Shown: positions 2,183-40,800, counted from the stretch's first letter. The stretch is DNA of 64,000 bases from Rhizaria sp. SCN 62-66 (GCA_001724265.1 MEDY01000059.1:1-64000), one strand, 5' to 3'. A program made the numbers and translations. Notes: a model not told the origin generated them from the sequence alone.

Positions 2183-3817
2183 TTAACTCTGACTATTACT
2201 ACGCATGCACTAAAGCAGACTGCGCAGCTGCGTAAGCTGATCTTGCGCGGAGCTGCCTTGCGTGCAACACTCAGCGTCCTGCAGTTCTGCTAGTAGCTGC
2301 TCGCCATGATGTGAGATGAAATCTGCAGCAACATGGCCTGCAGTTTTGTTGCCATCAGCCGCGTCAGACAATGTCAGAGGATCGCTGTTCTCAATCATCG
2401 TCCGCAGCACGCGCAAGAGGGCTGTAACTGTGTCACCGCTGATGCACTTCTTGCTACTCGCCAGAGTGCCACTGTTGCGCGTTGTCAGCGCAAGTAGCCG
2501 CAAGCAGTACAAGTGCGCCCCCTTGTTGTGCATCGCTTGCGTCATCCTAACGCGATCAGTGGCCGTCGCCAGCAACGCATCAAAGAGATGCGCTGCGTTT
2601 GACAGAAGATTACAGCGACCTCTGTCAGAGTCCTCATTATCGGTCACGCTGTCATCATTATGGTCGTCGTTATCATCGCTTACATCGAGCTCATGACCAT
2701 ATTTCGAGACATCAAACTCATCAAGAACGTCACCACCCGTCCCAAACACCAACTGCGTCGCTAGCGCGGGCGCACACCTGCCAATACGGTCGACAATTGC
2801 TGAGAAACGAGCGAGGTCATCATCGCTCCAGCTGTCTGACGGAGGCGTTGTGAAGCATGACTGAGAGAGTATTTCGGCATGTTGCGCCGAGAAAACGGAT
2901 GCAATCTCATTGTCACTGAGTTTGTCGAGGCAGATGCAAAGAAAAGTAAGATGCGAGCTGGATTTAAGGTTGATCGTTTTGAGAACAAGATCAAACTCTG
3001 GACTCAGAGCAAGCGCGCGCGCGTCCGCAGCGCGTGCGTCAAAGGCGCTGGGGTCGCGATGATAGCCGACGAGCACGATGAGACAAGAGCACACCGAGTC
3101 GATGAGGAGGCTAGAGAACGATTCAATAGAATGTTCGCTGTTTTTGCGGTGTCCTTCCAAGAAGCACCGAAGCACGTGGCGTAGCAGGACCAAGAAGCCC
3201 GACGTCGCGGCGTACGGAGGAGCGTTGTCGCCGACAGTGCAGAGGTAAAGCACTGCGGTGAGGCATTGCCCAAACCCGCTGTCAGCGGGGGAGTCAAACC
3301 GGATAATAATGTCATCAGAAACAACAGGCACACGGGGGAACAACGAATTTGCTGCTGTTTCCGCGTAGGCAAGCAAGTTCGCCAAGGTATCGACTTTGAC
3401 CGCCAAGGAGAAGTCAGGATCGCTGTACAGACGACGGCAGAAGATGTTCTCTATGGCAACGAAAATGCGCAGCACTTCTTCAGAAGTCCTACAGCGCATA
3501 AGATGCCGAGAAAGCTGCGACAGTACGTTGCTTTGGACAGGTAAGCGCCTGTCAATGTCGTGACCTTCAAACATCCGAATGAGGATATCACGTCGTGCAC
3601 CACCCACACAGTCGCCGCTAAGCTCGAACGAGCGCATTAGGAACTCGATAACGCCACTCTCGTTGATGATATGAAAGGCACTCTCGATATGTTGACACTT
3701 TCCAATCGCAGCCGTGAGTTCGCAAAGCTGATAGAGACTCAGGTTGAGAGAGATGACGGTGGCAATTCGGATGCTCAGCTGGAGGAGACGGAAACACTCA
3801 GCTTTCTGTTGTTGCAT
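2183..3817 (-). CDS. Hypothetical alpha-helical (possibly ARM/HEAT-like) protein; ends at TAA 2183-2185 if the TAG at 2210-2212 is sense
   Basis: 535-codon ORF with Leu-rich helical character and an acidic patch. After the TAG the frame continues CMRSNSQS and then TAA. GC content is lower than in neighbouring genes. Confidence 0.7.
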
Positions 3818-12117: not shown

Positions 12118-12408
12118 GTGAATAACAACTAAACGCTATGTAGAACATAATACAACTAAATCCATTCATATATCACTCTAAAAACCCTTTATAAACGCAA
12201 GCTTAACAAGAAAGATGTGACGAATTAAGTCGACGAAGAAAAGTATGTGTAAGGCGATATAGTCAAATTCAAGAGGAATTATTTTGATATTATAACAAAA
12301 ACGTATATTAACTTTTGGAACTTATATTATTTTTCTATTTGACGATCAATCTCTTGCAGGCCAAGTCGATTTAATCACTCCCGCACTGCTGCGGACCGAC
12401 GACTCAGA

Positions 12409-19800: not shown

Positions 19801-20019
19801 CTGTTGCTGCTGCTGCGCGATAGCCTGCGCCTGGGCCTGCGCGGCGGCGGCGGAGGACGCGGCGTACGGGTTGCTGTTGTAGTTAGCGTAAGGGTTCTGC
19901 TGAAGGTGGTGCGCGGGCGCGGCGGAAGGTGCGGCAGCGGTGGGCACACCGTAAGGGTAACCCACAACCTGGGGCTGCACGGGCTTGGCGCCGTAGCCGT
20001 AGGAGACGCCGTGCGACAT
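16813..20019 (-). CDS. PLK: Polo-like kinase; exons 19513-20019 and 16813-19308
   Basis: The glycine loop CIGR|GGFARC is restored by removing the GTACGT...CAG intron (19309-19512). Also YAGK, HRDLKLGN, DFG, ICGTPNYIAPE and the polo box WVNLWVDYSNKYGLGY. Ends TGA. Confidence 0.97.
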
Positions 20020-20244: not shown

Positions 20245-20617
20245 TCCAACGGTATCAGCGATTTTTCACGTTTGCTTTCCCAGAAATTTCGGCATCCAAG
20301 CGCAGAATAGTCCGAGTATGCTTTAGTTCATGCAGCTTTATCTCTATGTTTGAAACCAAAATAAATTTATGATGACAAAACAACCTCCAACAGTGCGCTC
20401 CAAGATTGCCCTCCCCGGTTTTGAACCCTGCCAACCCTCCAACGGCTATTTTTCGCCCACGGTCCTTCTTGCTGGAGACTGGTGAGAACGAGTCAAAGTA
20501 AGTAAGCCGCACTGGGCTGATCTTCAAGTCAAATTGCACTTAATAATCATCGTCAATTGCGTTAACGTCTATGTATGTATATTAAGCATTTTTATACCTT
20601 TATTATCCGAATTCAAA
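20245..20617. promoter_or_regulatory. Putative bidirectional G2/M promoter with MSA/Myb-like and CHR-like motifs
   Basis: TCCAACGGTA at 20245-20254 and TCCAACGGCT at 20438-20447. TTTGAA at 20349-20354 and 20420-20425, and on the minus strand at 20612-20617. Lies between the divergent PLK and WAPL-like genes. Confidence 0.45.
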
Positions 20618-20684
20618 CCTCCTTCACCACCTGCCTGGCAGTGTAGGTCGCTTGTTTTGTTCGCGCCATTTCCGAGTGGGCCTG

Positions 20685-23600
20685 ATGTCTGACCCAAGCT
20701 CTCGGGCGGCTGCCTCTTACGTCAGTCCCCCAGCATCAGCACCACAGTTTTTTGACCCCTTTGCGCCACTTGCCCGCCCCAAGGGTGTGCCGCAGTTTCC
20801 TTCCGCTCTAGCCTTGTCCTTCGCGCCCCAGGCCGTTTCAACCTCGACTGCGGCCGGATCTGCTTTGGCGCCCTTGACGCCCGCGCCGTCTGCGCCGCCG
20901 CCGCCGTCGCTGCTGGTGCGCTCCGATTACCGCATCGGCGTGCCGGTTGTTGCGCGCGCGTTGGCCCGGTCTGGCGCGCTCAGCGCCGCCGCGGCCGCCG
21001 ACGCCGCCGACGGGCTGCTGTATCACCTCGAGGGCCTGCAGTCGCCCGCCGCCGCTGTCGCCGGCGCCGCGCTCGCGCAAACGCTTGTCACGCTGCGCCG
21101 CGCCGCCCTTCCTGCACCTGCCAGCGCGTCTGTATTTTTTGGCGACGCCAGCGCGGGCGCGGCGGCGTTTTTGCTGCTGTTCCGCTGCGCGGGGGCTGGA
21201 GAGGCGGCGGCCATCGTGAGCACCAACCCCGCTCTCGCGCCCGCCTGCGCCGCCGCAGTCGCCGCCGCAGTCGCTGCACGCGATGTGACGCAACAGGCGC
21301 GCGTTGCGGCGGCTGCGCGGCGGCAGCGTGTGCCCGCGGTGGTCCGGGTTGTGCTGGAGCTGCTCACATACGCTCTGTCGCGAAACCTCGCCATTTACAG
21401 TAGCACGAACACCAACAGCTGCAGCTCTGCCGCCTCTGTCGGCGCGGGCGGGGCGCTGGGTGCGCTGTCGGCGGCGGAGGCGGCGGCGTTGGTGTCGCCC
21501 GCGCTGGCCACGCTGCTGCTGCGCGTTGCGGCCGGCGACTGCGGCTGGGCTCCGGCCGCCGCAACTGCCAGCGCAACCCCAGCGGGCATCAGCACAGGTG
21601 CGAGCGTAGGCGGCGTTGGCGCGCGTGGCGGAAGCGACGACGCGACCGTTGCCGGCATGACAGTCGCTGATGCCATGAAGGTAAATGCGGGTGATGCAAC
21701 GCCCGACAACGCGTCTGCCACAGCTGCTCTTGCTGGGGTCCGTGTAGGCGAACACGATGACAGCGCTGGCGCTGGCGCTGGCGAGGTGCGCAGTCGTCGG
21801 CGCCGCCGCCCCGCGGCCGCTGCTCCGGCTGCTGCACTGGCCGACGCCACGCCTGATGTTGACGCGAGTCTCACTGGCGGCGAGCGAGGCGATGGCCAAC
21901 GACGGCAGCCGCAGCCACAGTCAGAGTCTGAGCCGTTGTCGGAATCCCAGTCGCAGGCGCACTTGCAGTCGCAGTCGTTCACGCTGCCGTTGCCGTTGCC
22001 GCTGCCGCTGCCGCTACCACTGCAGCAGGAGCAGGAGCAGGCGCGCGAGGCGCCGTCGCTGCTGCTGCTGTGCTCCCTGCTCGCCGACACCGAGGCCGAC
22101 ACTGAGGCTGAGGCGAAGGATGAGGCCGACGTCGCCGTCACGGACGGAGACACTGACGGGGCTGCAGCGTCTGGAGTGACTGTAACTGCTCTCATGGCCC
22201 CATTTAGCAACTGCGATCACGTCCACGCTCACGACCCCATCGAGAGCGACAGAGACAGCGACTGCGCCTGCGAGCTGGCGCAGAGCCGTCTGCTGGCGCT
22301 GCTGCTGCTGGCGCGTTTGTTCGAGTTGTCGCCCGCCGCCGCCGCCGCGCCCGCCGCGCTGGCGTCTCTTGCGCTCCCCTTGCCGCGCGCACGCATATCT
22401 GCACACCGGACTGGCGACGCGGGTAGCAGGTCCGCCGGCGGTGTCGCAGGCGCAGCTGCTTCGACGGTGGCGCCCGCGGCGGCGGTCGTTTTAGGAATAG
22501 TCGATGCCGCAGTCACTGACGTTGCCGCACGCCTATTTCCCGCGCACGCGTCTAAGAACCTCGCATATTAGTGCTCTCCGTCTGAGTCCTCCGCGCTGCG
22601 CGGGGCCGGCCGTTTGCCGCCGCTGCTGTCAGCGCTGTTGCGCGCGTCTGCGGCACTGGCAGGCACGTTCCTGAGCCCGCAGGCGGCGGTGGCGACGCTC
22701 ACGGCGCTCGACGACGACCCGGCCGTGACCGCCGCCGCCGCCGCCGCAGTCGTCGCTGCCGCCGCGGTCGCCACAGGGGCGCGCTCGCGGTGCTCCGCGC
22801 TCGCGACTGCGCGCAGCGGCGCAGGGGCGAGCGCCGGTGACGGCGAGAGCGCGACTGTGACGGCGAGGGAGGACTCAAACAACGAGAATGCGTCCACTGC
22901 GCTGTCACATAACAGCAGCAGCAGCAGAGGCGTTTCTGGATATGTGCTGAACGTCGCTGCCACCGGTGGTGTCGACAGAGGCGCGATCACGCGCGCACTG
23001 CTTGCCGTGACCACGCCCCTGTCGCTCACGCCAACGGTTGCGCAGTCAGCGAGTCACCCAACTGCTGTTGAATCGATCCCCGCAGAGGCATTTGCAGAGG
23101 CTGAGTCGCGGCAATTCCGCGCCGAGCTGGCCGCCGCGGCCCAGAGCCCCGCCGCGGCGAGTCTGTCGTCGCCCGCCGCAGCCGCCGTGGACGTGCCCGC
23201 GGTGGCCGAGGAGGCGTGCTTCCGCGTGCTCGTGCGCGGAATCGCCGTTTCTACCGCCGCGCTCTCCGCTGCTGTGGCACTACACCGGCAGCAACGACTG
23301 CAGCAACCGGCGAGTTCACCGTTCTGCAGCAGCAGCCGCCCGTGCTGCTGCGCGCTGCCCGTGGGCCTGGTGCCGTTCGCGCGGCAGCAGCTGCTGGTGT
23401 GTCTGGACCTCTCGCACCGAAACCCGCTCGCCGCGCAGGCCCTCGCGTCGCGCGCGCGCCTCACGCCGCTTGCCGACTCCGCACCCAGCGCCTCGACTGC
23501 CGCCGCGACCGCCGCCGCGACCGCTGCAAGGACTGGCGACGACGAGAGTGACGGAGCAGCGCTGACTGGGCTTGGCGTCGTCGCGAGTCTGTACGCTCTC

Positions 23601-25088
23601 TCGCGTGCTGCGACAGCAATGACTGCGCACAATGCGCGTGTCAATACGACCGCAGATCATTCCGACAGCGGTGCCGAGGGCGCAGGTGCCGAGAGTATGC
23701 GCTGCGTCTGCTGCAGCGCACGGAGGAGTGGCGGTGACACGAGCTCGCACGCATGCGGCTTAGCTTCCCTCTCCGCGCTGGCGGCGCCCGCGCTGGGCGT
23801 GCTGGTCAACTGCCTCGAGGCGGCACCGCAGCAGACGGCGGCTGCGGTTGCCGCGCTGCGCTGCCGGGTGACCCTGAGCAGCACGGGTCCCAGAGGCTCC
23901 GAGAGCAGCGACACGGGGAGTGCTCAGCTTGACAACGCGTGCGTCGGCGCTGCATTGGATACAGCGAGTTCTGATGCCAGTGCGGGTGACGCTAGTGGTA
24001 CAGAGGATATTTTTTCGCTCATGTTTGCCGCAGCCGCGACCGACGACACGGCGAGCGCCGACACCAGCGGCAGCTCTGCAGCGACCCTGAGCAGCGCCCC
24101 CAAGACAGTGAGCCGGACCGAGACCCTGGGCGCGCCGCTTTGGCTGCTGCTGTGGCACTAGTTTGCGGCCGACTACGCTCTGTACAAGCGCGCCGTCTCT
24201 CTGCTCTCGCGGCCACCGCCACAGGCCCAGCCACAGCCGCAGTCGATGTCACACCCGCAGCCGCAATCTCTCGGCGGTTTGAGCTTAGACTCCAGTTCCA
24301 GGTTGCAGTCGCAGTCTCACTCTAACGGGCTCACGCAGACGCTATTTTCCCCTGCACAGTCGCTCTCGCCGCTGCCGTCTCTGCTCTCGACGACGGCGAC
24401 CCTGGCGCCGGCCGCGCGCGCAGCCGCCGACTGCGCGAGCAGAGATTAGTCTCTCTTTGGAGAGACTGTGGCAGTGAGCGACGGCCGCTGCACTGACGTG
24501 GCCACGACAACCGGCGAGACCACGACAACCGGCGAGACCACGACAATTGACGAGACCGCAACTCATGCCACGACTGCTGCTGACGCCACGAGGGCTGCTG
24601 AGACTGCCGCGGTGCGCGGGGCGACGGCGGCGCAGTTGCGCGCGGGCTACAGCGCGATCATGCTCTCGTGGCTTGCCGTGTCGCGGCCCGGCTTCCTGGA
24701 CGTGCTCGAACACGTCGCAGCCACGGCCAGTAGCATCATCGGCAACTGTACTATCGCCGGGGCCACTGGTGACACTGCGACCGAGAGCGCGGCTGCGAGC
24801 GCGACCGTGGGCGCCGGGGAGCGGCTCGCGGAGGCGCTGGGCGACTACGTGGCGATGCAAACGCGCTCTGCCGCGACTGCGACCGCGACTGGGGCCGCGA
24901 ATGCTACTGCGACGTCAGGCGCGGCTGGTCATGGTGAAGGCTCGAGCAACAGCGTCGCTGTCTCACACAGCGCCAGCGCCATTGCAAGCGGGGCTGCGGC
25001 CGAGGGCGGGGGTAGCGAGGAGGCCGAGGGGCTGCGCAGGCAGCTGTTGCGGGCGGTGCGGCGCCGGCAGCTGCTCAAGCTTGAGTGA
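20685..25088 (+). CDS. WAPL-like cohesin release factor, 1467 aa, read through three in-frame TAG codons (22569, 24159, 24447)
   Basis: The four listed ORFs starting at 20652, 22614, 24246 and 24468 share one frame and are separated only by TAG. WAPL-like motifs occur in the expected order: CLDLSHRNP, LGVLVNCLE, LLWH*F, GYSAIMLSWL, LAEALGDYVAMQ (assignment from recalled motifs). Ends TGA. Confidence 0.7.
24501..24558 (+). repeat. 18-bp coding tandem repeat (TTTGET units)
   Basis: ccacgacaaccggcgaga twice plus a degenerate third copy. Confidence 0.8.
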
Positions 25089-25346
25089 AGAGCAAGCAAA
25101 ACATTTAATGACACACGGATACATAAATTCGAGTCGACTTCATGAAAGTTGACGCGCAATACATAGCTTTAGTTTAAGAATCCAATATAATCATCATGTG
25201 AGCACGTATATAAACTGATTGTTTATTGACTGAAACAATCCAAAGTTCTCTCAGTAAATGAAAACACACATCTTAATAGAACAACACAAGCACTAGTTAT
25301 AACCTTTTCTTCACGATTTGAAGCTATTGCTTTGCCGCTTGCGGGC

Positions 25347-26135
25347 TTACCGCTTGCGCTCCGCCTTCCACTTGAACTCCTTGGAGACGACGTCTCCAAA
25401 CTCGTCCTTGGTGACGAGCGCCTTGCGCTTGCCACCCTCGAGCATCTTCTTGTGCGTGCCCAGCTTGACCTCAACGCGGCCCAGCTCGGTGATGCGGTCC
25501 AGGCGCTGCCGGAGCTCGCCATACGCCGCCTTGCGCGCGCGGTCCACCTTGGCCAGGTCACCCGGCTTGAGCTGCCGCGCGTTGAGGATGACGTTGCCCT
25601 CCTCGAGCTGCGCGCGCGTCAGCCGGTTGTAGGAGCGGCCCACCAGCTCGGGCACCGTGTCGAAGTGCTCGGCGGCGTCAAAGTTGTCGACCTCCTCCTC
25701 GGTGTCCTTGAAAACAACGTGCTGGCGGCCCGCGTCCGCGGCCACGGACTCGTCCAGCAGCTGCAGCGAGGCCTTAAGCTTCGCCGCCTTGCTCTTCTCG
25801 CTCTGCGTCTTCATCTCGATGTACTTGAGGTCCTTGACCTTGACGTCCACGCGGTCGTCCAGCCCCATCGTCTTGTCGGGTCGGTAGTCCGTGTGCTCGC
25901 CCTTGCGCAATCGCGAGGTGTGCATGCGCTTGTAGTACTCGTCCTCGTTCTTGGTCGCCGCCTTGGCGCGCATCTTGTTGAGCTGCGCCTGCTTGGCGCG
26001 GTAGTCCTTGGAGCGCACCTTGAAGTCCATCTTCTTCTCCAGCAGGCCAAAGCGCGCGCGCGCCTCGGGCTGCGAGCGCTCGTGGTACTTGATCGTGTTA
26101 AACTTGCGGAACGGCCGCATTTCGGAGTTGGACAT
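25347..26135 (-). CDS. UTP11: U3 snoRNA-associated protein 11 (SSU processome)
   Basis: YHERSQPEARARFGLLEKKMDFKVR, KAATKNEDEYY, FDAAEHFDTVPELVGRSYNR, and C-terminal FKWKAERKR. Ends TAA. Confidence 0.95.
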   Translation of the reverse strand: MSNSEMRPFRKFNTIKYHERSQPEARARFGLLEKKMDFKVRSKDYRAKQAQLNKMRAKAATKNEDEYYKRMHTSRLRKGEHTDYRPDKTMGLDDRVDVKVKDLKYIEMKTQSEKSKAAKLKASLQLLDESVAADAGRQHVVFKDTEEEVDNFDAAEHFDTVPELVGRSYNRLTRAQLEEGNVILNARQLKPGDLAKVDRARKAAYGELRQRLDRITELGRVEVKLGTHKKMLEGGKRKALVTKDEFGDVVSKEFKWKAERKR

Positions 26136-26835
26136 GGTGTCTGTGTGCGGGAGGGCGAGAAGCGCCGGGATGGGGCTCTCGCGGGTGTTAAAGTCGGGCT
26201 GGGGACAGCGGAACGGGGCTGGCGCGGGATAAGATTCTGCGACAGAATAGCCGACTCGCGTTTAAGATGTGTGGTAAGAGAGAGAACTGCACTAATGGAA
26301 AGCGGGGGTGACAGGAGCAAGAGAGCGAGTGGGTGGTGAGAAGGGGGCGGACTGGGGCGAGGCGAGGAAACCGGGGCTCGGCTGGAGACAAAGAGTGCGA
26401 CAGGAAGCCACACTAAAAGAAGAGAATTAATATCAAGTGGCAGAACGCATGAATTCGAGGATTTTAACAACGTTTATGGTCATAGTATCAACTTTGAGCT
26501 CCTCTCCGAGGATGCAACTCGAGGTTCGCCCACGGTCGCTTGCAGCCTCGACCGCCCAACCAACCAGCCACGCCTTCGGTCGATGATGGCAGAGATAGCC
26601 TGTCTTAAAGGACTTTGTGTGAGATAGTTCTTTCGTCAGCGGCGATATAGACGAACTATCGTGTTTATTGTCTGGTTTATTTCACTGCCTTAAATTTACT
26701 TTTGCTTTTGTGTTGGTCTCACCATTCCACTGTTTGTTTCGTACTTTCAGACTTGACTCAACTTCATCCGAGACTAGCACGCGCCCACCATCACTGGGCC
26801 TTGAAACAGAGCTCTTTTCACTACTCATTTCACAC

Positions 26836-29800
26836 ATGCCACGGGCTTCCCCGGGCACCGCCGGCTCTCCGTCGTCTGCTCGGCGCAGCGATGGCTCTGG
26901 CGCCCCCGCGGCTCCTCCCGTCGGAGCTCCAGATTCGTCCCTCGCTTCTGCCTCCGCCTCCGCCCCCGCGGCCCCTGCTGCCCCGGGCGCGTCAACAGCG
27001 ACGAAGCTGGCCCACGTAGAGGCGCTCGAGGCCTCTTTGCTGGTCCCGCTTCACCGCGCGGCCGCAGCGTCGTTGTTCTTGCCGTCCTCGACGCTCGCGC
27101 CCGCGCCGTTCCCGCCGTACGTGGTGACCGCGCTGTCCTTCGTGCACGGCGCGCTCTCGGCCGCGCCCGCCGCGCTGCTGCTCTTCGCCGCCGTCGCCGC
27201 GACCGCGGGCGCATGGCCCGACGCCGTGGCCTCCCCGTCGCCCGCGCGCTCGTTCTTGGCCGCCGCGGCGACGCCCTCGGCCGTGGCGCTGTGGCTCACT
27301 GCGCTGGCCCTCGTCGCCGCGGGCTCAGCGCTCGGACCCGCGCTCGCCGAGTGGGTTGCGCGTGCATACGTCGCCGCACACTCGCCCGCCGCGCACTCGT
27401 CCGTTGCGCTCGACGCCGCAGCTGAGACCGCGCCTGCGACTATGATTGCGGGCGACTACCACGGCGGTCGCCGCCGTCGCGGCCGTCGCCAGACTGCTGC
27501 TGTCTCCGCGGCTGACGGGCCCGAGTCGGCGGCCAGGGCCCGCAGCAGCTCGGCCTGGGCCTACCCCACCGCGCCCGCGCCGCGCCCGCCCGCCGCTACC
27601 TCAACCGCTGCCGCCGCCGCCGCCGCCGCCGCCGCTGCGACCGCAGCCGCTGCCGCAGCTGCGACTGCTGTCCGCGACACCGGGCTTGGCGGGCTCGGGC
27701 TCGACGTCGCGCGGCACGCCGCCGCGCCCGGCAGCGGCCGGGGCCTGGGCGAGGGCGACCCGCTTGCGTTTTCGCCCTACGCGGGCCCCACACACGGCCA
27801 GAGGCTGTCTGCGGGCGCTGCGGCGATTACGAGCGCGGGCGACCTCAGCTCTCGCGCCCAGGCCCTCGAGGACGAAGATGAGGACGAGGATGGCTACAGC
27901 GTCAGCGGCGGCGACAGCGAGCAGGACTATGGCGACCGCGAGCGGCTGCTCTTGGCGCACTCGCACAGCGCCGCCAGCGCCGGTCTGAGCCGCAGCCACA
28001 GCCGCGGCCACTTCGACCGTGCGGCTGCTGCTGCGGCGGCGGCTGACGACGATGAGGACGACGACGCCGACTCCGTCTACGCGGCCGGCGTGACCGCGGC
28101 TGCGCCCGGCGCCGCGGGCGCGGACGACGCGGACGAGGACACCGCGTTTACGATCGTGAGCCGCTCGCGCGCAAACACGCACGCCCGCGGCCATAGCAGC
28201 GGCAGCGGCAGCGGCCACGGTCACGGCCACGGCCACGCGCAGGGCGACGGCGAGGGCGCCGTCGTGTCGGCGCTCTCGCCGCTGCTGTCCGCGCGCAGCG
28301 CCAGCTCCGCTTCAGCGACTGCGACTGCGCTGTCACCGCTGCACTCCGGCGTGGGCTTCGGCGCCAGTCCCGGCGCGGCCAGCGCCAGGGGCGGCCAAGG
28401 CCTGAGCTACGGCTCCACGGACTCCCTGTCTGCGCCCAGCCAGTCCAACAACGCAAGAGCGAACGCGAGCGCGACCAATGCGAGCACCGGCGGCAGCGGC
28501 AGCAGCAATAGCGTGATCGTCAAGGCGCCCGCGTCGCTGCCCCTGCGCGCGACGCGGTTTGTTGCGGGTGTGCTGGCCGCGGCCGCCGTGATCGGGCTCG
28601 CGCTCGCCACGGGCGCGCTCTACTTCGCCAGCGAGCTCCATGTGCAGGCGCTGCGCGAGGCCGCCGCGGGAGTCGAGTGGGCGCGTCCCCCGCCCATGTA
28701 CTATGGCCAAGAGCGCAGCTTCGGCGACATCCTGTTCGCCGACATCGATGCGCCGCCGCCGCAGCCGCTCGCGCTCTCCCGCGCGGCTCTCGGCGCCGGC
28801 AAGAGCGCCGGCGCCGTGCCCGCGCTGTTCGACTTCGCCGCCCTCGTGGGCGACGGCGCGGGCGACGCGGGCGCAGGCGGCGCCAAGGGCGGCCCCGGCG
28901 GCAAGTCTCCGTTCGGTGGGCTGGCAGGCTCGGCGGGCGGACTGAGCTCGGCAGCCGCGCTGCTGCCCACGTCGCCCGCGGCGGCCGCGCGCACGCTGGG
29001 CCGCGTGCTGGTCCCGCCGCGCTCGCTGCCGCTGCTCAGCCGCAGCCACAGCTTCAGCGACTTCGATGATGACGACAGCGACCTCGACGCCAGCGCGAGC
29101 GGCGCCGCGGTTGCTAGCGGTGGCGAGCAGTGGGTCTGGCTGGGCGTGGCGTCGCCGCTGTGGACGTCGCTGTACCAGCCGCTGCTGCTGCTGCTCGCGG
29201 CGCTGGGCGCGGCGCTCGTCACGGCCGCCGTCTCGGGCGCCGCGCACGCCGCCGCAGTCACGTGCGCGCAGGCCGGCGCCCAGGCGCCCATCGCACCGCT
29301 CGAGCTCGCGCCTGCTCCCGCCGCCGCGCACGCCGCCGCCGCCGCCGCTGCTGCAGCCGCTGCGGCCGACGCCACCACTGGTGGTGCCGCTGCGAACACG
29401 GCGCCGCGTGTGTCGATTTGCCTGTCGCCGCTCTCGCACGCGCACTCGCTGCACAGCCCCGCGCTCGCGCCCCTGGCCCCCGGTAACAGTGGTGCCGGCG
29501 CCGCTGGCGCTGCCTCGGGTGCAGGTGCAGGCGCAGGCGCCGGTGCGCTGGTGCTGTCGCCCGTGACGGGCCCGCTGTCGCACAGCCACTCGGCGACCTC
29601 GCTCTCTGCGCACAGCCACGGCCACGGCCACGGCCACGGCCACGGCGGCGGCGGCCACAGCGGCGGCCACAGCGGCTATCTGTTGCCGCGCCCGTCGCCG
29701 GCTTTCGGCCCAACGGCCTTCACCATCTCTGGCTCCTCAGCCTTAGCCTCCGGCGCTAGCGCCGCGCCTCCCGGCGCGGGCGGCGCCGGCGTGATGGGCG

Positions 29801-32800
29801 GCGGCGTGCGGCTGGGCATGTACCACGGCGCCGCGCACGGCCACTCCTCCAGCGCTCAAAGCCACAGCAGCGGCAACGGCAAGCAGCTGTCTTTCCTGCC
29901 TGAGCAAGACGAGTCCGCTCCTGACGACGCCGAGCTCAACGACAACGCCGCCGTCGCAACCGCGCCCGTCGCTTTCTCTGCGTCGTCGGCGTCGTCCTCG
30001 TTGCCTTCGCGTGCCGACGCCGCCACGGCCGCTGCGGCCGCGCAGGCGGCCGCGGACAGCGCGGCCGCGAGCGAGGTGCTGCTGGCGCCGCTGCCGCCCG
30101 AGCCCGGGGACGCGTACATCGCGTCCTCGCTGCTGCTCGACGCGCTCGTGCACCGTCAGTTCGCCGCCGCCGCGCCGCTCCGGGCCTGCGGCGGCGACGT
30201 CACCGCGGCCCGCGGCGCCGACGCCTTGGTGGCCGTCGAGTGTGACCACGGCGTGCTGCTGCCTCTCGCCGCAACGCACCGCGCGCTGCTGCGCCAGCGC
30301 GGCGGGCCGCTGTCCGCCGCGGCCGCGCGCAGCACCGTCCCCGCGCCGCCGGCCCCCGCCTCCGTCCACAGCCACGGCTACCGTCACGGCGGCAGGGCCA
30401 GCAAGGCTGCGGGCGCCGCCGTGCGCGCGTCGCTGCTGCGCGCGTTCCCGCTGGGCGTGGCCTTCTCGCTGCTCGCGCTGCCCGTCGTGTACGCGCTGCT
30501 GCTGCGCTCGGCGGGCCACGCGGTCGCCGTGCGCGCCGCGCAACTGCTGCGCGGGGACATCTTGCCCTCGGGCGCGCCCTCGCCCGCCGCGCTCGCCGCC
30601 GCCGCCGCCGCCGCCACGGCCGCGGAGACCACGCTGGCTGAGTCCAGCGGCGGCGGCGCCCACGGCGCGGCATCGTCGCCGGGCTTCGTGTCGCTGTTCA
30701 ACATCCACTCTGCGATCCCCGCCGCGTCCTCGGCCTCGGCGGCCTCGGCGTCGCTCGCGCTCCCGCTGCCGCCACCCGCGTCGGCCGCCGCGCTGGCGAA
30801 GCTCTTCCTGGTTTCGTCGCCCGCGGCGGCGGCGCCCGTGGTTGCTCACGGCGTGCTCGCGCGCGCGCTGCTGTCGGTCGCCGCGGGCGTGCTGACCGCG
30901 GCTGCGCTCACGCTCGTGCTGCTGCTCGTGTGGGCGCACAGCGAGTTGCGCTACCACTCGTCGCGCTACTATGCCGCGCTTACCGTCGTGGAGCCTACCG
31001 CCGCCGCGGCGACGACGCAGACGCCGTCCTCGCATTCGCAGTCCCGTTTGCGGTCTGCGCGCTCGGGCAAGGGCGGCGCTGCGAAGTCTGCGCGCGCGGG
31101 CGGCAAGCGCGTATCGCTCTCGGTCGGCGACGCGCGCTCGCAGTCGCCGCCAGAGCTGTCCTCGAGCCGGTCGCTGCTGGCCGCGCCCGCCGCCGGCGCC
31201 AGCTTCGTTGCCGGGGCGGGCGCGACGTCCCCCGCCCTTGTGCCGCTGCCGCTGCCGCTGTCGGGGTCGCCCGCGGGCGCGGACGCGCTGAGCAAGGCCG
31301 GCGGCGCCGCGGGCGCGCTGCCGCCGCTGCTGCACAGTGCGCCGCGGACGCGGCTGCGCGCATGGGCGCCGCTGCCGCTGCTGCAGTCGGCGCTGGCTGC
31401 GGCCGCGCACCTGCTGTTCCTGCTGCTGCCCGCGGCGCTGACGCTGCTGCTGGGGCTGTCGCCGGTGTTCGAGGCGCCGCTGGTGGCGCTCGCGGCCGCG
31501 CTCGTGTGGGGGTTGGTTACCTCGCTGCCCTCCGCAGTGCGCGTGTACCGCAACGCCGACGACGGCGGCGACGCCGAGGCCGACGCGGACCCTGTGTCGG
31601 AGCCTGAGTTCGACGACCCCTACGCCTACACCGCCGGCGCGAACCACCGCGTCGTCCACCGGCCCCGCTCGCGCGGGCAGCCGAGGAGCGCGTGGTCCGT
31701 GCGCGGCTTTGCGCGCTCCGTGCGGGACACGTTCGCCCCTCCCGTCACCGCCGTTGCGCCGCGCAGCGCGCACGCGCACTCCCGCGGCCGCGGCGACGCC
31801 GGCAACGGCGACGGCGACCGCGAGGGTGTGAGCGTGTGGTCCGTCGAGCGTCTCAGCGCCGCCGCGCGTGTGACGGCCAAGACCGCGCTCGCTGTGTCTA
31901 CTGCGGCCACCGCGACCGCCGCCGACAGCGCCGACTGCCAGGGCAGCCAGGCGGGGGCACTGCCCGTCGCCGTCGCGCTCGCCGTGATGGAGGCCGAGAC
32001 CGCGTCGCTCATCGCGGACGCCTACTCCAGCGCCGCGAGCACTCCGACTGCCGCTGGCGCTGACAGCGTCAATAACAACATCGTTGCGGTTTCCTCTGCT
32101 GGCGAGGCGAAGCCCGCTGCGCATGGTCACTCGACCGCCGCTGCAGCTTCGACTACTGCCGCCGCGCCCGCGTCTGGCGCCGCCCTGGCGCGCTCGACGC
32201 GTCGGCTTCTGCTGCTGCTCACCGTCTCGCTGTCGTGGCTTCTGGTGCTCGCGCTGGCCCGCGGCGTGCCGGGCCTGTACAACCACTCCTCGGCCGCGGC
32301 CAGCGCGAGCAGCGCCAACGCCGCGGGCGCGGACATGGGCGCGAGCTGGGCCGCCGCGTTCGGGGGCGCGGCGACGCCGCAGTCTGCCCAGCCACCGGCG
32401 CACAGCAAGGGCAAGGACAGCGAGGGCGTCGGCGCGCGCCTGTCGTCGGGCCTCTGGGCCGTGGCGTCGTTCGTCATCACGCTGCTGTCGCCTACCCCGC
32501 CGCGCACGCTGCACCCGCTGCCGCTGCCGCTCTCCGTTTTCCGCGGCGACTCATCTCCCGCCGCCGGCACTGGCGCGGGCGCGGGCGCAGGCGGCGCACC
32601 GCCGGGCGTCGCCGCGCTGCTGCCGCTACTGACCGGCGCCGGGCTGTCTTCGTTCTCCGCCGCGACGACGGCGGCGACGGCGGCCGCGCACGAGTCCTCC
32701 GCGGTCTACACCGCGCTGGCCGTCGTTCTCGTGCTGCTGGCGGCCGCCGCGCTCGCGGGGCTATCGCGCGTGGCCGCCGTCGCGCTCTGGCAGGGGCAGA

Positions 32801-35800
32801 CGCGCCTCGCCGTCGCGCGCGCGCTGCTGGCCCGCCTCGTCTCGGACCACTACGCCGACGTCGTCACCGGTGTCGCCGCCGAGAGCGGCATCGGCGCTTA
32901 TGTCGACACTGCAGTTGCTGAGAGCAAGGGCGCGCAGGGCTACGGCGCTGTCGCGATCTCCGTGCCTGGTTACACGGCTGCTGCGACCGCCCCCATCGTT
33001 GCGCGGCCGTCGCGGCTGTCGCAGATGCTGCGGCTCCCGCTGCTCCGCCGTCTCTTCACACCGCGCTCGCTGACGTCGACCTCGGCCGCCTCTGCCGCGG
33101 CCGCGATCACGCTCGCCGTCGTCGCTGCCTTTGCTGCTGGCTGCATGCACTTGATTTGCCTTTACGCGCGCTACCCGTCCCACGCTAGTTCTTCCGCGGC
33201 GACCACCCACACCGTGCTTGCCTCCTCTGATGATGACGACGCTACCCAGGCTCAGTTTGCGTCTTTTGCCTCCACCTTCGCGCCCGCCAACGGCAACGGG
33301 AGCGCCGACAGCAGCAAGAGCGGCAAGGCGAGTTTGGGCGACCTCGTCGTCGACGTGGGGCTGCTCACCGTGCACCTGGCGTCGGCGCAGCTGCTGTGGC
33401 CAGTGCTCGCCGCTGTGGCCGTGCTCGCCGCGCTCGTCCCCGCACTCGCCGCCGTCGCGCTCGCGCGCGGGCTCGGCCGCAGCGGCGCGCGCAACGACGG
33501 CTGCGGCGAAGAGGACCACCACGACGGCGCGTACAAGCCGCGCGCGCGCGTGCTGAGCAGCCACCGCCGCGAGGCCGAGCCCGCCGCCGACGAGGACCAC
33601 TACCGCAACAGCTACCAGTCCCCAAGCATGAGCACCGGCGAGCCCGTGTGTGTCGTGGGCGCTGCGAAGCCGCTCGCGTTGTCTGTGCTGCCCAAGGCGG
33701 CTGCGCCGGCGGACGCGCGCCCGGGCTTCGCGCCGCTGGCGCCGGTGCGCGCCTTTTGGCGCGCGCTGTCACAGCCGCCACTGCTGGGCGGCACGCACCC
33801 GCGCTCCGGCGCGTTCATGTTCTCGCTCGCTGACCTCGCCGCGCTCGCGCAGAGCGACGGCGTCGCCGCCGAGGCCGCGCCCGCGATCGCCGCCGCGGCC
33901 AGCAGTAACGTCATCGCGCGCGCGGGCACCGTGTTCACGGTGCCGCCGCCGTCGCCGGCCGTGCTCGAGGCCACTGTGTCCGCGACGGGTGGCCTGGCTT
34001 CTGTGTACCACGCGGCCTACATTCCGCACACTGTGCACAGCACCACTGTCGCCGTTGCAGCCGCTGCGGCTTCCTTGGGCACGGATGCCGCTCATGATGC
34101 GAGCGTATCCGTCGACGCCGACGTGCACAGCTCCAGCCTGAGTCTTACCGCGAGTCTGAGCAGCTGGGTGCTGAGCCCCACGGTCCCGGTCTCGCAGCCC
34201 GCGTCGTCGGCGGCCTCCACGGTCTCCGCCGCGCCCGCAGTGCCCGCGGTCACTGCCCGCGCGCTTGCCACTGTCGGTGCGGAGCTCTTGCCCTGGGCTG
34301 CGCTTCCCGGCGTCACTGTCGTCGCTGCAACTAGCTCGGCTGACGCAAGCACTGTCGTCGGTGGTTTGGCCGGACTGCCGCTGTCCGCGGCCGCTGTTGA
34401 GTGGCTGTGGTCGCGCTTGCCGCCCGCCTCCGCCGCCGCCGCCGCGGCCTCGGGCAGCTCGCGCGGCGGGGCATCGATGCTCGCGTTGGGCGCGCCGGGC
34501 AGCAGCAGCGCGGCGGCGCGCACTCGCACCGCCGCCAACGTTGCTGCGGCTACGGCCGCGCTGACTCGCGCCCCGACCGCCGCCGTGGCCGCCGCGACCC
34601 TGCTCGCCCCGGTGTCCGCCTCGGTGTCTGTGCCGGCGGTCGCCTCGTCTCTTGCGGGCGAGGCCGCCGCGTCGCGCGACGAGGACGCGGCCGACGCTGA
34701 CGCGATCACGGTCTCGGCGCGCGACGTCGCCTACGCGCGACTCCGCGGCGCCGACTGCGTGGGCGAGGCCGCAGCCGCAGTGGCGAGCTCGCGCCCGCTC
34801 TGGCTCGTCGGCGCCGGTGTCGGCGCGCTGTGGTTCGCTGCGCGCCAGCTCGGTGACGCTGCGCGCGCCGCCGCGGCCGCTGCAGCGTCGGCCACGAGCT
34901 CCGTCGTTGCGACACCTGTTGCCGTCAATAACAACGATGATGACGATGATGGCAATGATTGTGGCAATGGTGGTAAAGGTAGGGGCAACAAGAAGCACGG
35001 GTTTGACGGTGGGGACATGAGCAGCAGCGGTGACAACGACGAGTCTGACAACGACGATGACGCCAACGACGACGGCCGTGGTTCTGACCCCAACACCAGT
35101 AGACAGGCATCCTCGCGCATGCAGTCCTTGCGGGCCGCCGACACGGGTGCTCCGTTTGGCAGTGCTGAGAGCAACAAAGCTGCTGACGCGTCCGCCACGC
35201 TCACAGCGCTTATTGCCGACTCCGCCGTTTCCGGCGCGAGCACTGGCGCTGCTGCTGGACGTAGCTAGGCTGATGAGGACGAAGATGTGCCGAGTGACCT
35301 CGACTTATCGACGCACTTGCCTAACCCGAGCTTTGAGAACGCGAGCGGCGCCACTGCCGGCGCTGCCGCTGCCTCTGTTCAGATTCCAACGGCACATGAT
35401 GTCATCTCTTCCTTTACTTCCGCTGACTCGAACAATTAGTCTGCGCCCGCTGCGGTCTCTTCCATCGCTTCGATCGCGCTCCCGTAGCCGTCGGCTGCGC
35501 TTAAAACATCTGACGCTGTTCCTACAGCAAACAAGAACAACATTGGTACCGATGCCGCGTCCTCTTTCGAGCACGGTAACTCACTCGCTGTCTCTATCGG
35601 TGTCCGCGACTGCGCTGGCGACAGTGCTCGCGACAGCGCTCTTGGCAGCGGCACCAACACAGGCAACGGCGACGACGAGGAACAAGGTGACCGCTTCATG
35701 CCATCACCCTCGCACCTGCAATCGCATTCACATGCGTACTCGCGCGCGCACTCGCACGCCTACTCCCCGTCGGCGTCGCCGCGCTTCTCGCAATCACGCT

Positions 35801-37440
35801 CGTCGTCACACGCGCCGTCGCCGCGCATGTCGCCTTCGGGCGTGCGCCGCTCGGTGACCTCCATCGTCTACCAGCCTCCGCCCGCCGCGCTTGCGCTCGC
35901 CCCCTCTGCGTACGTCGCTCCTCCAAGTGCGAACCCCGCCTCGCGGACTGCGAGCGACGGGCAGCATCTGCAGCAGCAGCAACAGCCGACGTCGTCACGC
36001 TCATCTCAGACGCGGTCACAGTCGCCGACGAACTCGCAGAGCGATGACGGCGCTTCCCCTTCTCCCCTCACGACCCCGCGCCAGATGACTGCCAGCGGCG
36101 CTGTAGCGGGCGGCAGCGGGTCGCGCGCGGCGAGGCCGTTCCTGACGCCCGGACTGGCCCCGCGCACTGTGTCGGCCGCCTCGGCCGCGCGCGCGCACAC
36201 GCAACAACAGTCACAGTCTCGCTCGCCCTCGTCCTCCCCGCAGCAAGGCCACACGCACATAAACAACGCACGCGGTTCTGAAGTTCCTTCGCTGCTTGAG
36301 AATAACGACGACGTTAACCTGGCGTCCGAGCAAGAGCTCGAGCGTCCGCGCGGCCAGTCTGCGGTGTACGGCGCGGAGGGCCTCGACCAGCACTACAGCA
36401 GTAGAAGCGGCAGCGTTGTCGTCGGCGGCGGTGCGAATGGTAGAGTCGGACTGAACCATGGCCAGACTGGCTCGTACTCGTTGCAGCAGCTGCACCGCCG
36501 CCTGGTCACCGGCACTTCGTCCGCCTCGCGCTCGCCGCAGCCGCCGGCCAACTACGCGCGCGCCTTCACGCCCACCTCGGCCGACGCCGCCGCTGCGGCT
36601 GCAATCGCGGCAGCTCGCATTGTGCCTGCCGGCGCGGCCCCGCTGTCTGCGGCCGAGCTCATGGGCCTCGGCGCGGGCGCGACTGCGGGCACTGCGACGA
36701 TCGGCGCGGGCGGCCTTCCCCTGTATAACCGCTCTCACCGCGGGTCTGTGTCGGCCGTTACGAACCCTGCGCTGACTGCGCGGCTTGACTTCGATAACGA
36801 GTTCCCTGATGACGACGCCAACGACGCAGAGGTTGCCGCTGCTGTCGCCGCCGCGGTCGCCTCGGCGCGCGCCGCGGCCGCTGCTGCGCGCGCCGCTGGC
36901 GGTGAGAGCGACAGCCCGAGTCCGAGTCACAATTCGAGCAGCCACCGCGATGGTGACGGCGAGCGCAGCCAGTACAGCCCCAGCCGCAACAACGCCGCCA
37001 CTGGCGACGCAGGTTCAGAGGACCCTAATGCCGTGGTTACCGCGGGCGCGGGGCCGCGCGGCAGCATCTCCGGCCGCAGCCGCGCAGGCCGCAGCGTCGA
37101 CAGCCGCGCCGAGGCGGACGCCATGATGGCCGCGCGCCTGGGTCGGCTCTCACCCTCGGGCTCCGCCGCGGGCAGCGCGTGGAGCCTCTCGCTGAGCGAG
37201 GCGGAGGACCACCGCGTCTACGCAGCGAAGCAGCTTTTGCGCGCTGGCATTCAAGTTGCTAACACGCCCCTGCGCCCTCCCGGAGCGACTGGAGCTGGAG
37301 GTGAATCAACGGTGACGAGTCCGTCGACGGCAGCCGGGTACATCATGGCCATGGAAGATATTGCGCGTAAGCATGTGGGGTTCTCTCCTATCAAGCACGA
37401 AAAGCATCCTGAACAAGGACAGGAGTCACATCCTCAGTAA
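26836..37440 (+). CDS. Giant (3534 aa) Ala/Ser/Gly-rich multi-pass membrane protein of unknown function, read through three in-frame TAGs (35266, 35437, 35485)
   Basis: ORFs 26668-35268 and 35698-37440 are in the same frame. The linker translates as natural protein (ADEDEDVPSDLDLSTHLP...GDDEEQGDRF) with TAG as the only stop codon. Many long hydrophobic segments. Ends TAA. Confidence 0.75.
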
Positions 37441-37890
37441 GACTGATACTGTCATCACTGAGGTCTCTGTTCAAGTTGCAAATGCCTACAAGAGATGTTT
37501 AACAAGCTATTTAGTTTCTGAGTTTTAGTCTTAAGTCTTCAAGTTGTTTTGTACTTCGACTTGAAACACACACAATACAATTCTGATTTTCATTCTGCAG
37601 CTTCGACTGTGAGTCATGAAAGGTGTCACTTAAGAGACTGTGAGCACAGATAATCAGAGGTGGCCGTTGATGTGGGTCAGATTTCGAAGCCAGACTCTTT
37701 AAGTCTGTATCACTTTACCCCTAAAGGAAAACAGTCTGCATGTATTATTTACAGATATAACTTAAATATGAAAACGTGAAAATTTAATATTAAGCCTTAA
37801 ATCGAACATGTATCTCACCAAACCTATCTTGATGTTCGTGACCCTCGTGCTCGTACGCAGGAAGAGAGTCCTGACTCTTTCTTCCTAACG

Positions 37891-40800
37891 ATGTCACGCG
37901 TCGTTCACTCTTCCTTCTTCCGGCCGTTTTTAACAACGGCCGCAGCTTTTTTCCTTTCTGTGTGTTACTTTAACGTGCCCGGCGTGCACGCGCAGAACAT
38001 TCGTGCGGGTTCCGACCCCGTTCCTGTGTTGCTTGCCTCGGCTACGGGGCTGCGTCAGTGTTACAGCTTCGACGGTACGGGGAACAACTTCGAGACCCCG
38101 TCCTGGGGCTCAGTTGGCGAGGAGCTTGTGCGTCCTGAGGGCAACAACTACGAGAGTAACTCATGGCACTTCATGGCGAACGGGCCCAACCCTCGTACAG
38201 TCTCCAACGTCATGTCTCACGAGACCTGTACCGATGGCGACCGTACTGCTGAGACATGCATCAACGACTGGTAAGTCAACTTAAAACAAGTCAACCCGCA
38301 TGCTGTGGTCATTTAATTGTCTTCTTTAAGTTGTGTATGTCGTAGCACGTCATCAAATTGCTAAATCTGTTGTCGTTTCTTCGCACTTCTCTCTGTTTGT
38401 TTCCGCCCCTAGGTTCTGGCTGTGGGGCCAGATGATCGACCACGACATGACACACGTGCCGCTCTTCCCCAAGGGCGTGGACAACACGACCATCAACGTC
38501 CCTGTTCCGTCGACCGACCCGTTCCTTGCCGGCCGCTCGCTGCCAATGCGCCGCTCGGCCGTGACGGAGAACAGCGAGCAGATCAACCTCGCGACGGCCT
38601 ACCTCGACGCGAGTCAAATCTACGGCACCTCCGCGGCCTCGGCGCGGCGCGTGCGCTCGCTGTCGGGCGGGCGACTGCTTGTAACGCAGGACGGCTTTAT
38701 GCCGGTTATCCCCGCGCGGCTGCGCATGGACCACGGTGCGACGCCGACGTTCGACGAGCTGGGCCACCCCGCCTTCCGCGACCAGTTCCTCTGCGCCGAC
38801 ATGCGCTGCAACCAGCACGCGCCCATGGCCGCGCTGCAGGTCATGTTTGTGCGCGAACACAACCGCATTGCGTCCGCGCTTGCTGCGGCACGGCACCCGG
38901 CGTACCAGACCGATGAGGCCATCTACCAGACTGCGCGCGCAATGGTGATCGCGATGATGCAGAGCATCACGTACCGCGAGTTCCTCCCGCTGCTTATGGG
39001 CCGCTTTGGCGTTGCGCCCTACTCGGGCTACAAGAGCAACGTCCCTGCAGGTGTGTCCAACGCCTTTACCACGGCCGGCTTCCGCACCTCACACTCGATG
39101 GTGCGCTGCGAATTCCGCGAGACCACCACGACGGGGCAGACGCTGCGCGCGGTCAACTTCGCCACCTCCTTTTTCGACTCGACCTGGATTCGCGGCCCGC
39201 CTGCGCAGCCCAACCGTGCAAACCGCGAGGCAAACGCCTACCAGTCGATCATGCACGCGCTGGCCGTGAATCCCAGTGCGCGCATGGACCACCGCGTGGC
39301 GCCCTCGCTGCGCTCTGTGCTCTTCGCGCCGTCGACCACGGCCGCGGGCGAGGCTTTCCCTGCCATGGCCTTTGACGTCATTGCCAGCGACATCCAGCGC
39401 GGGCGCGACCATGGGCTGCTCGACTACCGCCGCATGCGCCGCGCACAGGGCTGGCGCGACGTGGGCTCGGTGATGGACATCACGGCTGACCGCAGCAAGC
39501 AGCAGATCCTCGCCTCGCTCTACCCCGACATCAACGGCATCGACCTCTTCGCCGGCATGATGCTTGAGGATCCGCTCGACGGCGCGCTTACGGGCCCTGT
39601 TACAACTTCTGTTGTTAGGGATCAGTTTGAGCGTGCTCGTGACGGTGACAGGTACGTCTACGCATTAGCAAACTATACTGCACATAGCCGCTATATTAAG
39701 ATTCCTTACGTTTTTTCATATCGACTTTATGCTAACCATACTCATTATCCTATCATTATCTTATTTGTTTTCGCTGTGATAACCGTGTATTTGCTCAGGT
39801 GCTGGTTCGAGAACCAGTTCCAGGGCCAGCTGCTGACTGTGCTGCGCGGCGTGCGCCTGCGCGACCTCGTGGACCGCAACTTCGCCAACCCGCCCCCGGT
39901 TACCACGCAGAACGCCGACGGCGTGGCCGCCGCGGCGACCAGCGAAGGCTTCTCGCTGCTGTCGCGCCGCCGCGACGGCCACGCCGCGCGCACTATGGCG
40001 ACCGAGACCGCCGCCGCCGCTGCAGCCGAGGGAGCGCTCGCCACGCCCCCTGTCGTCATCGATAACAGCGATGTCGGCATGCCTCCTGCGGACGGCGAGT
40101 CAATGTTTGGCCGCGGCCGCCCCAGCCGCGACGGCTCTGGTGGCCCCGGTGGCCGCGGCGACCGCGACGGGCATGATGGCCGTGACGGCCGTGGGCCCAG
40201 TGGTCGCGGTGGTCGCGGCGACCGCGGCGACCGCGGCGGTGACGACGGCCGTAGCAGTCGTGACGGCGGCAGCGAGGACGACAAGAACCGTCAGCGCGAC
40301 CCCAACCGCCCCCGTCCGAGAGACGGCGGCGACTCGCAGCACGGCGACTCGCAGCACGGCGGCGAGCACCAGCACGACGGTCACCACCAGCACGGCGACC
40401 GCCCTCACGGCGACGACGGCAGCCACGCGCACGGCCCGCGCGGCGACGACAGCGGCGGCGACGGCGACCGCCGTCCGCCTCGTGGCGACGGCAGCGGTGG
40501 CAGCGACGGTGACCGTCGGCCCCCGCGCGGGGACGGCAACAACGGCGACCGCCCCCGCGGGCCCCCCAGAGGCGAGCGCAGCCAGGGCCCCCAGGACGGC
40601 AGCGGTGAGCAGCACAGCGGCCCCAGAGATGGCAGTGACGGCGAGCACCGTGGCCCTCCCCGCGGCAACGGCGACAGCAACAGCGACAGCGACCGCGGCC
40701 GCGGCCGTGGCCGTGAGCGTGGCGCGCCCGACGTGGACCTGCGCAGCTGGGAGGAGCGCGAGCACGCGGGCCTTACAGGCAACGGCGTGCCGGGCCACCG

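Follow-up and report, generated by a model that had tools for sequence, protein, structure and literature searches.

Does the eukaryotic genome from which contig MEDY01000059.1 derives (Rhizaria sp. SCN 62-66, assembly GCA_001724265.1) translate UAG as an amino acid while it still terminates at UAA and UGA? The question is raised by two long genes, here called gene A and gene B, which lie on the plus strand between positions 20,685 and 37,440 of the first 64,000 nucleotides (nt) of this contig (the window) and carry three in-frame TAG triplets each. The reading that we favour, with a probability of roughly 55%, is that UAG serves as a sense codon, rare and sensitive to context, and that UAA and UGA terminate. 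It is best supported because the coding signal is unbroken, neither start codons nor spacers follow the TAGs, none of 17 clear gene ends uses TAG, and the base following the in-frame TAGs is distinct. It is the leading explanation, plausible and unproven. The first-pass annotation had advanced the same code; it stands as the best account of the data and falls short of a demonstration, the two genes being orphans with no homologue.

Two long genes interrupted by TAG only

Genes A and B comprise the following features.

20685..25088, plus strand: gene A, an orphan rich in alanine and serine that has three in-frame TAGs and runs for about 1467 codons from its first ATG to TGA
22569..22571, plus strand: first TAG of gene A, next base T
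24159..24161, plus strand: second TAG of gene A, next base T, in a hydrophobic stretch (...PLWLLLWH-X-FAADYALYK...)
24447..24449, plus strand: third TAG of gene A, next base T
25086..25088, plus strand: terminator TGA of gene A, next base A, at a boundary from GC-rich to AT-rich DNA (the next 100 nt have a GC fraction of 0.35)
26836..37440, plus strand: gene B, an alanine-rich orphan that has three in-frame TAGs and runs for about 3534 codons from its first ATG to TAA
35266..35268, plus strand: first TAG of gene B, next base G
35437..35439, plus strand: second TAG of gene B, next base T
35485..35487, plus strand: third TAG of gene B, next base C, followed by an open frame of 650 codons
37438..37440, plus strand: terminator TAA of gene B, next base G

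All six TAGs listed by the first-pass annotation (22569, 24159 and 24447; 35266, 35437 and 35485) were recovered in frame on the plus strand. Its statement that neither gene contains an in-frame TAA or TGA holds likewise: both counts are zero, gene A closing at TGA 25086 and gene B at TAA 37438, while each of the other plus-strand frames holds 21-67 such triplets. With TAG read as sense, the genes form single open reading frames (ORFs) at 20586..25088 (1500 codons) and 26623..37440 (3605 codons). Under the standard code they fall apart into collinear ORFs of the same frame, namely 20586..22571, 22572..24161 and 24450..25088 in gene A (661, 529 and 212 codons) and 26623..35268 and 35488..37440 in gene B (2881 and 650 codons). 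As a practical consequence, gene callers break both genes into pieces, and in public protein collections they are represented by fragments alone (P0127, P0128 and P0129). The product of gene B contains many hydrophobic stretches.

Some sequence is shared among the TAG sites. The 8-mer ATTAGTCT is common to two of them (24445-24452 and 35435-35442) and has no other occurrence in the 64 kb, whichever strand is read; the site of a third TAG (22567) shares ATTAGT with them. In addition, a perfect 8-bp hairpin with the arms AGTCTCTC and GAGAGACT and the loop TTTG extends over 24448-24474 and begins inside TAG 24447. This hairpin is absent from the other five sites.

Coding continuity across the TAGs

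To follow the coding signal along both genes, a score was calculated per segment and in sliding windows as the log-likelihood of codon usage, with six other genes from the window as the training set. In every segment of genes A and B the score is above zero in the gene frame and below zero in both other frames. The four segments of gene A score 0.12, 0.14, 0.12 and 0.18 per codon; gene B scores 0.41 before its TAGs and 0.27, 0.44 and 0.22 in the segments after them. TAA and TGA appear out of frame in the two genes at 0.010-0.022 per codon, from which, by our arithmetic, about 7-12 of them would be expected by chance in the downstream segments of 529 and 650 codons, and none is observed. Past TAG 22569 the first in-frame ATG is 349 codons downstream, and the segments of 56 and 15 codons between the TAGs of gene B are devoid of any ATG.

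The window is eukaryotic, with very GC-rich exons (about 65-78%) and short AT-rich spacers between them. Four introns were inspected; they are about 130-205 nt long, start with GTACGT, GTACGC or GTGCGT (GTRCGY) and end with AG, and local GC at introns is 0.33-0.47 in frame scans. The first-pass annotation had noted that no AT-rich intron-like segment surrounds the TAGs, and this was borne out: local GC is 0.55-0.75, with no GTRCGY intron nearby. The minimum, about 0.53-0.57 near 35350-35620, never reaches the level of an intron or spacer, and no AT-rich spacer was seen at any of the TAGs. A search for GTRNGT in the 400 nt upstream of each of the six gave just one match, at 23939. An intron running from there to TAG 24159 is ruled out because its 223 nt are not a multiple of three, yet the frame is unchanged. 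The six TAGs are therefore not in introns of the type used by this genome. They lie inside continuous coding sequence, which proceeds in the same frame beyond each of them in both genes.

These observations also bear on an arrangement of independent, tightly packed genes, each TAG closing one of them and the ORF behind it being the next. The ORFs obtained under the standard code (661, 529, 212, 2881 and 650 codons) are indeed gene-sized, and GC dips to 0.53-0.62 around 35260-35650. However, all the pieces share one frame, no ATG is available for 349 codons past 22569 or anywhere in the pieces of 56 and 15 codons, and the other gene borders that were inspected fall to 0.28-0.45 GC, which the TAG junctions do not. 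True stops in this window are moreover followed by a purine, as detailed below. We consider such a string of abutting genes very improbable.

Gene ends and the base after the stop codon

After correction for introns, 17 clear gene ends were available in the window, nine with TAA and eight with TGA; TAG terminates none of them. For the 15 genes other than A and B, the same correction reproduced the earlier tally (8 TAA, 7 TGA and no TAG). The base next to the stop is a purine at all 17 ends (13 G and 4 A), a four-base signal of unusual strictness for a set of 17.

At the in-frame TAGs the next bases are T, T, T, G, T and C, a purine in one case out of six compared with 17 of 17 at true stops (Fisher p = 1.8e-4). 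T stands after four of the six, whereas 0.17 would be expected from the local composition of first codon positions (p = 0.010), and a pyrimidine after five of the six compared with about 36% expected locally (p = 0.027). The context of the in-frame TAGs is systematically unlike the termination signal of this organism. The excess of pyrimidines suggests that the release factor may still compete for UAG.

A non-random context would also be expected if the code were standard and the TAGs were sites of programmed, context-dependent readthrough by near-cognate transfer RNAs (tRNAs), yielding truncated and extended isoforms, with TAG ending other genes as usual. In accordance with this, T follows four and a pyrimidine five of the six TAGs as against the purine at 17 of 17 true stops, the TAGs are limited to two genes, and codon bias is reduced in the downstream part of gene B. 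On the other hand, if readthrough had to occur three times in series in each gene, hardly any full-length product would result, yet the long downstream frames are kept. Folding of the RNA after the TAGs gave no stable structure (z from -1.06 to 2.14; controls, mean -0.33 and standard deviation 1.3), and under a standard code it would be unusual to see 17 gene ends and not one TAG, though the sample is small. On balance we find readthrough under the standard code unlikely.

One further gene end complicates the count.

2183..2212, minus strand: gene end with TAG at 2210-2212 (next base T), eight sense codons, and TAA at 2183-2185 (next base A)

The first-pass annotation had taken this third gene to read through TAG 2210 to a TAA nine codons on. 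The TAA is where it was said to be, and the readthrough is ambiguous, indistinguishable from termination at a true stop. The T after TAG 2210 resembles the read-through TAGs and the A after the TAA resembles the true stops, but TAG 2210 may be a real stop because GC drops to 0.31 directly after it, a point to be set against UAG as sense. Whether sense codon or working stop, it is ambiguous. The gene itself (2183-3835, minus strand) is an ORF of 550 codons with no Pfam match, and both its GC fraction (about 0.5-0.6) and its codon usage are unlike those of its neighbours. The local model gives it a poor coding score, although its frame is clearly open.

Support for the sites in DNA and RNA

The possibility that the TAGs are assembly errors, named by the first-pass annotation as grounds for refutation, was checked against contigs of sequencing runs. 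Contigs of run X1, probably the source sample, have zero differences over all six sites. In the independent metagenomic run X4, from another study, the listed pieces keep four of the six TAGs unchanged (24159, 35266, 35437 and 35485): record 10 spans 24159 with two differences, both elsewhere, and record 14 spans 35266, 35437 and 35485 with zero differences. Seven contigs are on record with P0128, the C-terminal fragment of gene B. Because the contigs of X4 keep these four TAGs and P0128 recurs on seven contigs, assembly error is unlikely. Furthermore, of the 13 variant positions listed across four runs, none affects a TAG codon. All six TAGs are genuinely present in the DNA. Four strain differences lie downstream of a first TAG, three synonymous and one non-synonymous, numbers that are not significant.

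Contigs of polyadenylated RNA (polyA-RNA) from run X5 lie on both genes, six of the eight listed pieces on gene B, but none of the eight spans a TAG, which counts against a firm call. Run X6, probably DNA, covers 35437-35439 only 2 nt from the end of a contig.

Correction at the RNA level was weighed against these data, either by adenosine-to-inosine (A-to-I) editing of UAG to UGG (tryptophan) or by removal of an unconventional, GC-rich, in-frame intron. Editing would account for the fact that TAG is the only interruption. The fungal type of A-to-I editing, as described in PMC11156358, favours U at position -1 and often acts at UAG stops, and premature UAGs that require editing are reported from Fusarium (PMC5496914, PMC10776026). 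Such editing prefers hairpin loops, however, and only one of the six TAG adenosines is in a predicted loop, compared with 8 of 27 out-of-frame TAGs of the same genes. The combination typical of fungal editing (A in a hairpin loop, U at -1) is thus not what the sites display, and U at -1 is trivial for any TAG. The organism is also unlike a filamentous ascomycete, with exons of 70-78% GC, introns of 130-205 nt and a polo kinase whose closest matches are protist-like sequences. No A-to-G difference occurs at any TAG in the RNA or cDNA runs, whose cover of the exact sites by RNA is not established, and a search for splice-site motifs near the TAGs found none. Correction of the message seems to us improbable, more so than readthrough.

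Rarity of TAG and the points against a sense codon

Several observations weigh against UAG as a sense codon. In 14 coding segments of other genes (polo kinase, AAA ATPase, aspartyl proteases, malate dehydrogenase (MDH), Utp11 and others) TAG is absent from all 8,624 codons. In-frame UAG in many genes, conserved ones included, is not observed within the 64 kb. The six TAGs are carried solely by genes A and B, both low-complexity orphans. Counted in the other genes, gene A and gene B in turn, TAG occurs 0, 3 and 3 times, ATA 1, 2 and 1 times, and TTA 7, 3 and 2 times, which puts TAG roughly on a par with the rarest sense codons. Its distribution is more skewed than rarity predicts: eight rare A-ending codons have 56 of their 131 occurrences (43%) in genes A and B, while TAG has six of six (0.43^6 = 0.006). 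In gene B, moreover, the coding score declines from 0.41 to 0.22 and GC at third codon positions from 0.86 to 0.74 after the TAGs.

Searches for homologues left the two genes as orphans. Neither matches a Pfam family. An exhaustive HMMER search with 942 residues of gene A against 1.84 billion representatives returned only its own fragment (one match). For the C-terminal part of gene B, one word-index search gave no homologue among 2129 candidates, and the word-index searches against long and short proteins together returned only its own fragments (two matches); the ESM Atlas gave no usable match to gene B. Comparison within the window for paralogues or internal repeats over the TAGs yielded only low-complexity noise. 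As no homologue aligns over any TAG, the amino acid is not readable and constraint is not directly demonstrable, which again weakens the case. Of the components that could decode or spare UAG, no tRNA with anticodon CUA is encoded in the 64 kb, where the only tRNA is a tRNA-Pro(AGG), a further point on the same side; the eRF1 gene is not located within the window.

A further explanation is that the TAGs are genuine premature stops, caused by recent nonsense mutations in fast-evolving orphan genes that have been inactivated or truncated and whose frames are still open through lack of time. It agrees with the confinement of TAG to two low-complexity orphans and its absence from 8,624 codons elsewhere, with the lower codon bias of gene B past its TAGs, and with the fact that constraint is not demonstrable without homologues. 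The presence of TAG alone had been used by the first-pass annotation as an argument for reassignment, and it does not carry that weight: it is not significant by itself. By our arithmetic, transition mutations of the codons of genes A and B produce TAG in about 69% of nonsense events because CAG and TGG are far commoner there than CGA and CAA. TAG is thereby the dominant product expected, and six TAGs out of six have p ~0.11 under this model, which also counts against the sense reading. Nevertheless, six such changes have come with no frameshift, TAA or TGA in 5,001 codons. Two more TAGs after the first one in each gene would imply many neutral changes, yet frames of 529 and 650 codons have stayed open although chance would give 7-12 stops. 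A pyrimidine at five of the six TAGs (p = 0.027) is not a prediction of random mutation, polyA-RNA contigs map to both genes of this compact genome, and the absence of TAG from all 17 gene ends is left unexplained. We therefore rate recent nonsense mutation as unlikely too, though it is the strongest of the alternatives.

A possible decoding scheme

If UAG is a sense codon, the ribosome would translate it as a rare and probably poorly decoded one, with no role as terminator, and UAA and UGA, each with a purine next to it, would end all genes. Decoding could proceed through a tRNA with anticodon CUA or through strong near-cognate suppression, and recognition of UAG by eRF1 would presumably be weakened. 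A release factor that still competes would let UAG persist only at sites of weak termination in weakly constrained genes. Such competition would probably explain both the context of the TAGs and their confinement to weakly biased genes. Judged by precedent, the likeliest amino acids at UAG would be glutamine or leucine.

A more specific scenario, which we put forward tentatively and hold to be doubtful, is that of a GC-rich protist of wastewater, outside the ciliates, in which codon capture has reached an early or intermediate stage. UAG would have gone from all gene ends and re-entered coding sequences as a very rare sense codon, only with a pyrimidine next to it and in weakly constrained genes, leaving UAA-purine and UGA-purine as the sole terminators. 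If true, it would offer a living example of a transition predicted by theory and seldom seen in sequenced lineages. The extreme rarity of UAG and its distinct next base would bear on how reassignments begin, by codon disappearance or through an ambiguous intermediate. A sense UAG would also add an independent origin of UAG reassignment, outside ciliates, in an abundant wastewater eukaryote.

Comparison with known codes

To our knowledge, nuclear codes in which UAG is reassigned and UAA is still a stop were unknown before 2017 and have been recognized in few lineages since. The first-pass annotation named a rhizarian, Iotanema and some ciliates as the few lineages with decoupled UAG; these are correct, and the list is longer than it stated, as the ciliates treated in PMC11687900 indicate. 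What would be distinctive here is the extreme rarity of UAG together with its context bias, the kind of code being known already from those few lineages. In the literature, supplementary files not included, no report was found that fits this organism or this code.

The closest parallels are UAG=Leu in the sainouroid 'Rhizaria sp. exLh' and UAG=Gln in Iotanema spirale, both described in PMC5304391. As in these two, UAG is the only stop triplet found in frame, it is scarcer in highly expressed genes, and the organism is not a ciliate. UAA and UGA are the sole terminators in exLh (56 UAA and 15 UGA according to PMC5304391) as they are here (9 TAA and 8 TGA). The contrast lies in abundance: the same source gives 384 in-frame UAGs in 71 conserved genes of exLh, aligned to conserved leucines, whereas our window has six TAGs among about 13,600 codons, all of them outside conserved genes and unalignable, a comparison unfavourable to reassignment here. 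As a further resemblance, sainouroids are free-living or coprophilic and this organism comes from wastewater and bioreactor samples.

Among ciliates, phyllopharyngeans are described with UAG->Leu in one lineage and UAG->Gln in two further species (PMC11687900), and Oligohymenophorea sp. PL0344 with UAA=Lys and UAG=Glu (PMC10553269). UAG is decoupled from UAA in these organisms as it would be here, and by the same accounts they were found by mining metagenomic or environmental genomes, UAG is widespread in them and suppressor tRNAs have been identified. The present genome differs in being GC-rich, with conventional-looking genes and introns, in the great rarity of UAG and in the absence of a suppressor tRNA from the 64 kb. 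More generally, in the established cases as presented in PMC5304391, PMC11687900 and PMC10553269, UAG is frequent in conserved genes and is accompanied by suppressor tRNAs or changes in eRF1.

The restorative A-to-I editing of premature UAGs in filamentous ascomycetes (PMC11156358, PMC5496914, PMC10776026) likewise concerns apparently intact genes with TAG as the sole interruption. It is unlike the present case in that the TAGs of genes A and B show no enrichment for hairpin loops, the organism bears no resemblance to a filamentous ascomycete, and no edited RNA was seen in the runs covered.

Codes in which the same triplet is stop or sense depending on context are reportedly present in Condylostoma, Parduczia and Blastocrithidia (Swart, Heaphy and Zahonova, all in 2016). 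In these organisms the position relative to the 3' end of the mRNA matters and all three stops are affected. The window resembles them in that the meaning of a stop codon apparently depends on its surroundings, with a purine after the stops and mostly T after the TAGs. It differs in that UAG alone is affected and ends none of the 17 clear genes.

Gene content, introns and occurrence of the window

Besides genes A and B, recognizable genes of the window encode a polo-like kinase, an AAA ATPase, two aspartyl proteases, a haem peroxidase, an alpha/beta hydrolase, an MPN-domain protein, Utp11 and MDH. The nearest matches of the polo kinase are protist-like metagenome proteins and one NCBI protein, and neither these matches nor the taxa given by the Atlas were informative on the lineage. 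Its longest named alignment is with a cercozoan transcript (36% identity over 77% of the query), which may hint at a link to Rhizaria and is to be taken only as a lead.

The introns located in the window are listed below.

19309-19512, minus strand: intron of the polo kinase gene, 204 nt, AT-rich
about 39685-39800, plus strand: AT-rich intron between GC-rich exons
about 40873-41020, plus strand: AT-rich intron between GC-rich exons
about 59787-59960, minus strand: AT-rich intron between GC-rich exons
about 47140-47285, plus strand: putative intron, indicated by a frame switch over an AT-rich gap only
about 57560-57720, plus strand: putative intron, indicated by a frame switch over an AT-rich gap only

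Splicing of 19309-19512 on the minus strand rebuilds the GxGxxG motif of the polo kinase, joining ...GKCIGR to GGFARCYH... at the junction. The start of this gene is in the upstream exon, 19513-20018, which gene callers overlooked in metagenomes because of the intron. Introns are also present in the peroxidase gene and in a thioredoxin-like gene, and are implied by frame switches over AT-rich gaps in the hydrolase gene and in the gene at 55618. The haem peroxidase gene (37801-38274 and 38330-41559, plus strand) seemingly has at least four exons; the ORF 37801-38274 fits the N-terminal part of the An_peroxidase profile, and the main and last exons use different frames.

Mapping of introns made several apparent in-frame TAGs irrelevant. 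The one at 40967 lies within an AT-rich intron between exons of different frames, and the one at 59787 corresponds to the AG of a 3' splice site. Three others, at 44735, 55651 and 5121, were dismissed since they are upstream of likely start codons.

DNA of the window is also present in sequencing runs from bioreactors, wastewater and activated sludge (10 studies). Scanning of metagenomes for the organism or its relatives returned its own contig of 4.5 kb, an AT-rich relative (38% GC) and a distant locus, L003 (27% identity). A scan of prokaryote genomes for a contig binned into a bacterial metagenome-assembled genome (MAG) gave only one bacterial MAG locus, at 27% identity. L003 and L004 are a locus of the same length, 12,806 nt, from a Joint Genome Institute (JGI) metagenome and a Candidatus Acidiferrales MAG; its kinase match has 27% identity and it has no bearing on the in-frame TAGs.

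Among minor features, the tRNA-Pro gene with anticodon AGG (1242-1313, minus strand) is the sole RNA gene detected in the window. The two aspartyl protease genes, both of eukaryotic type, are on the plus strand within 10 kb (2-652 and 10198-12117), the first truncated by the start of the window. A single N at 13464, within the AAA ATPase gene (12343-16170), gives an X in the translation.

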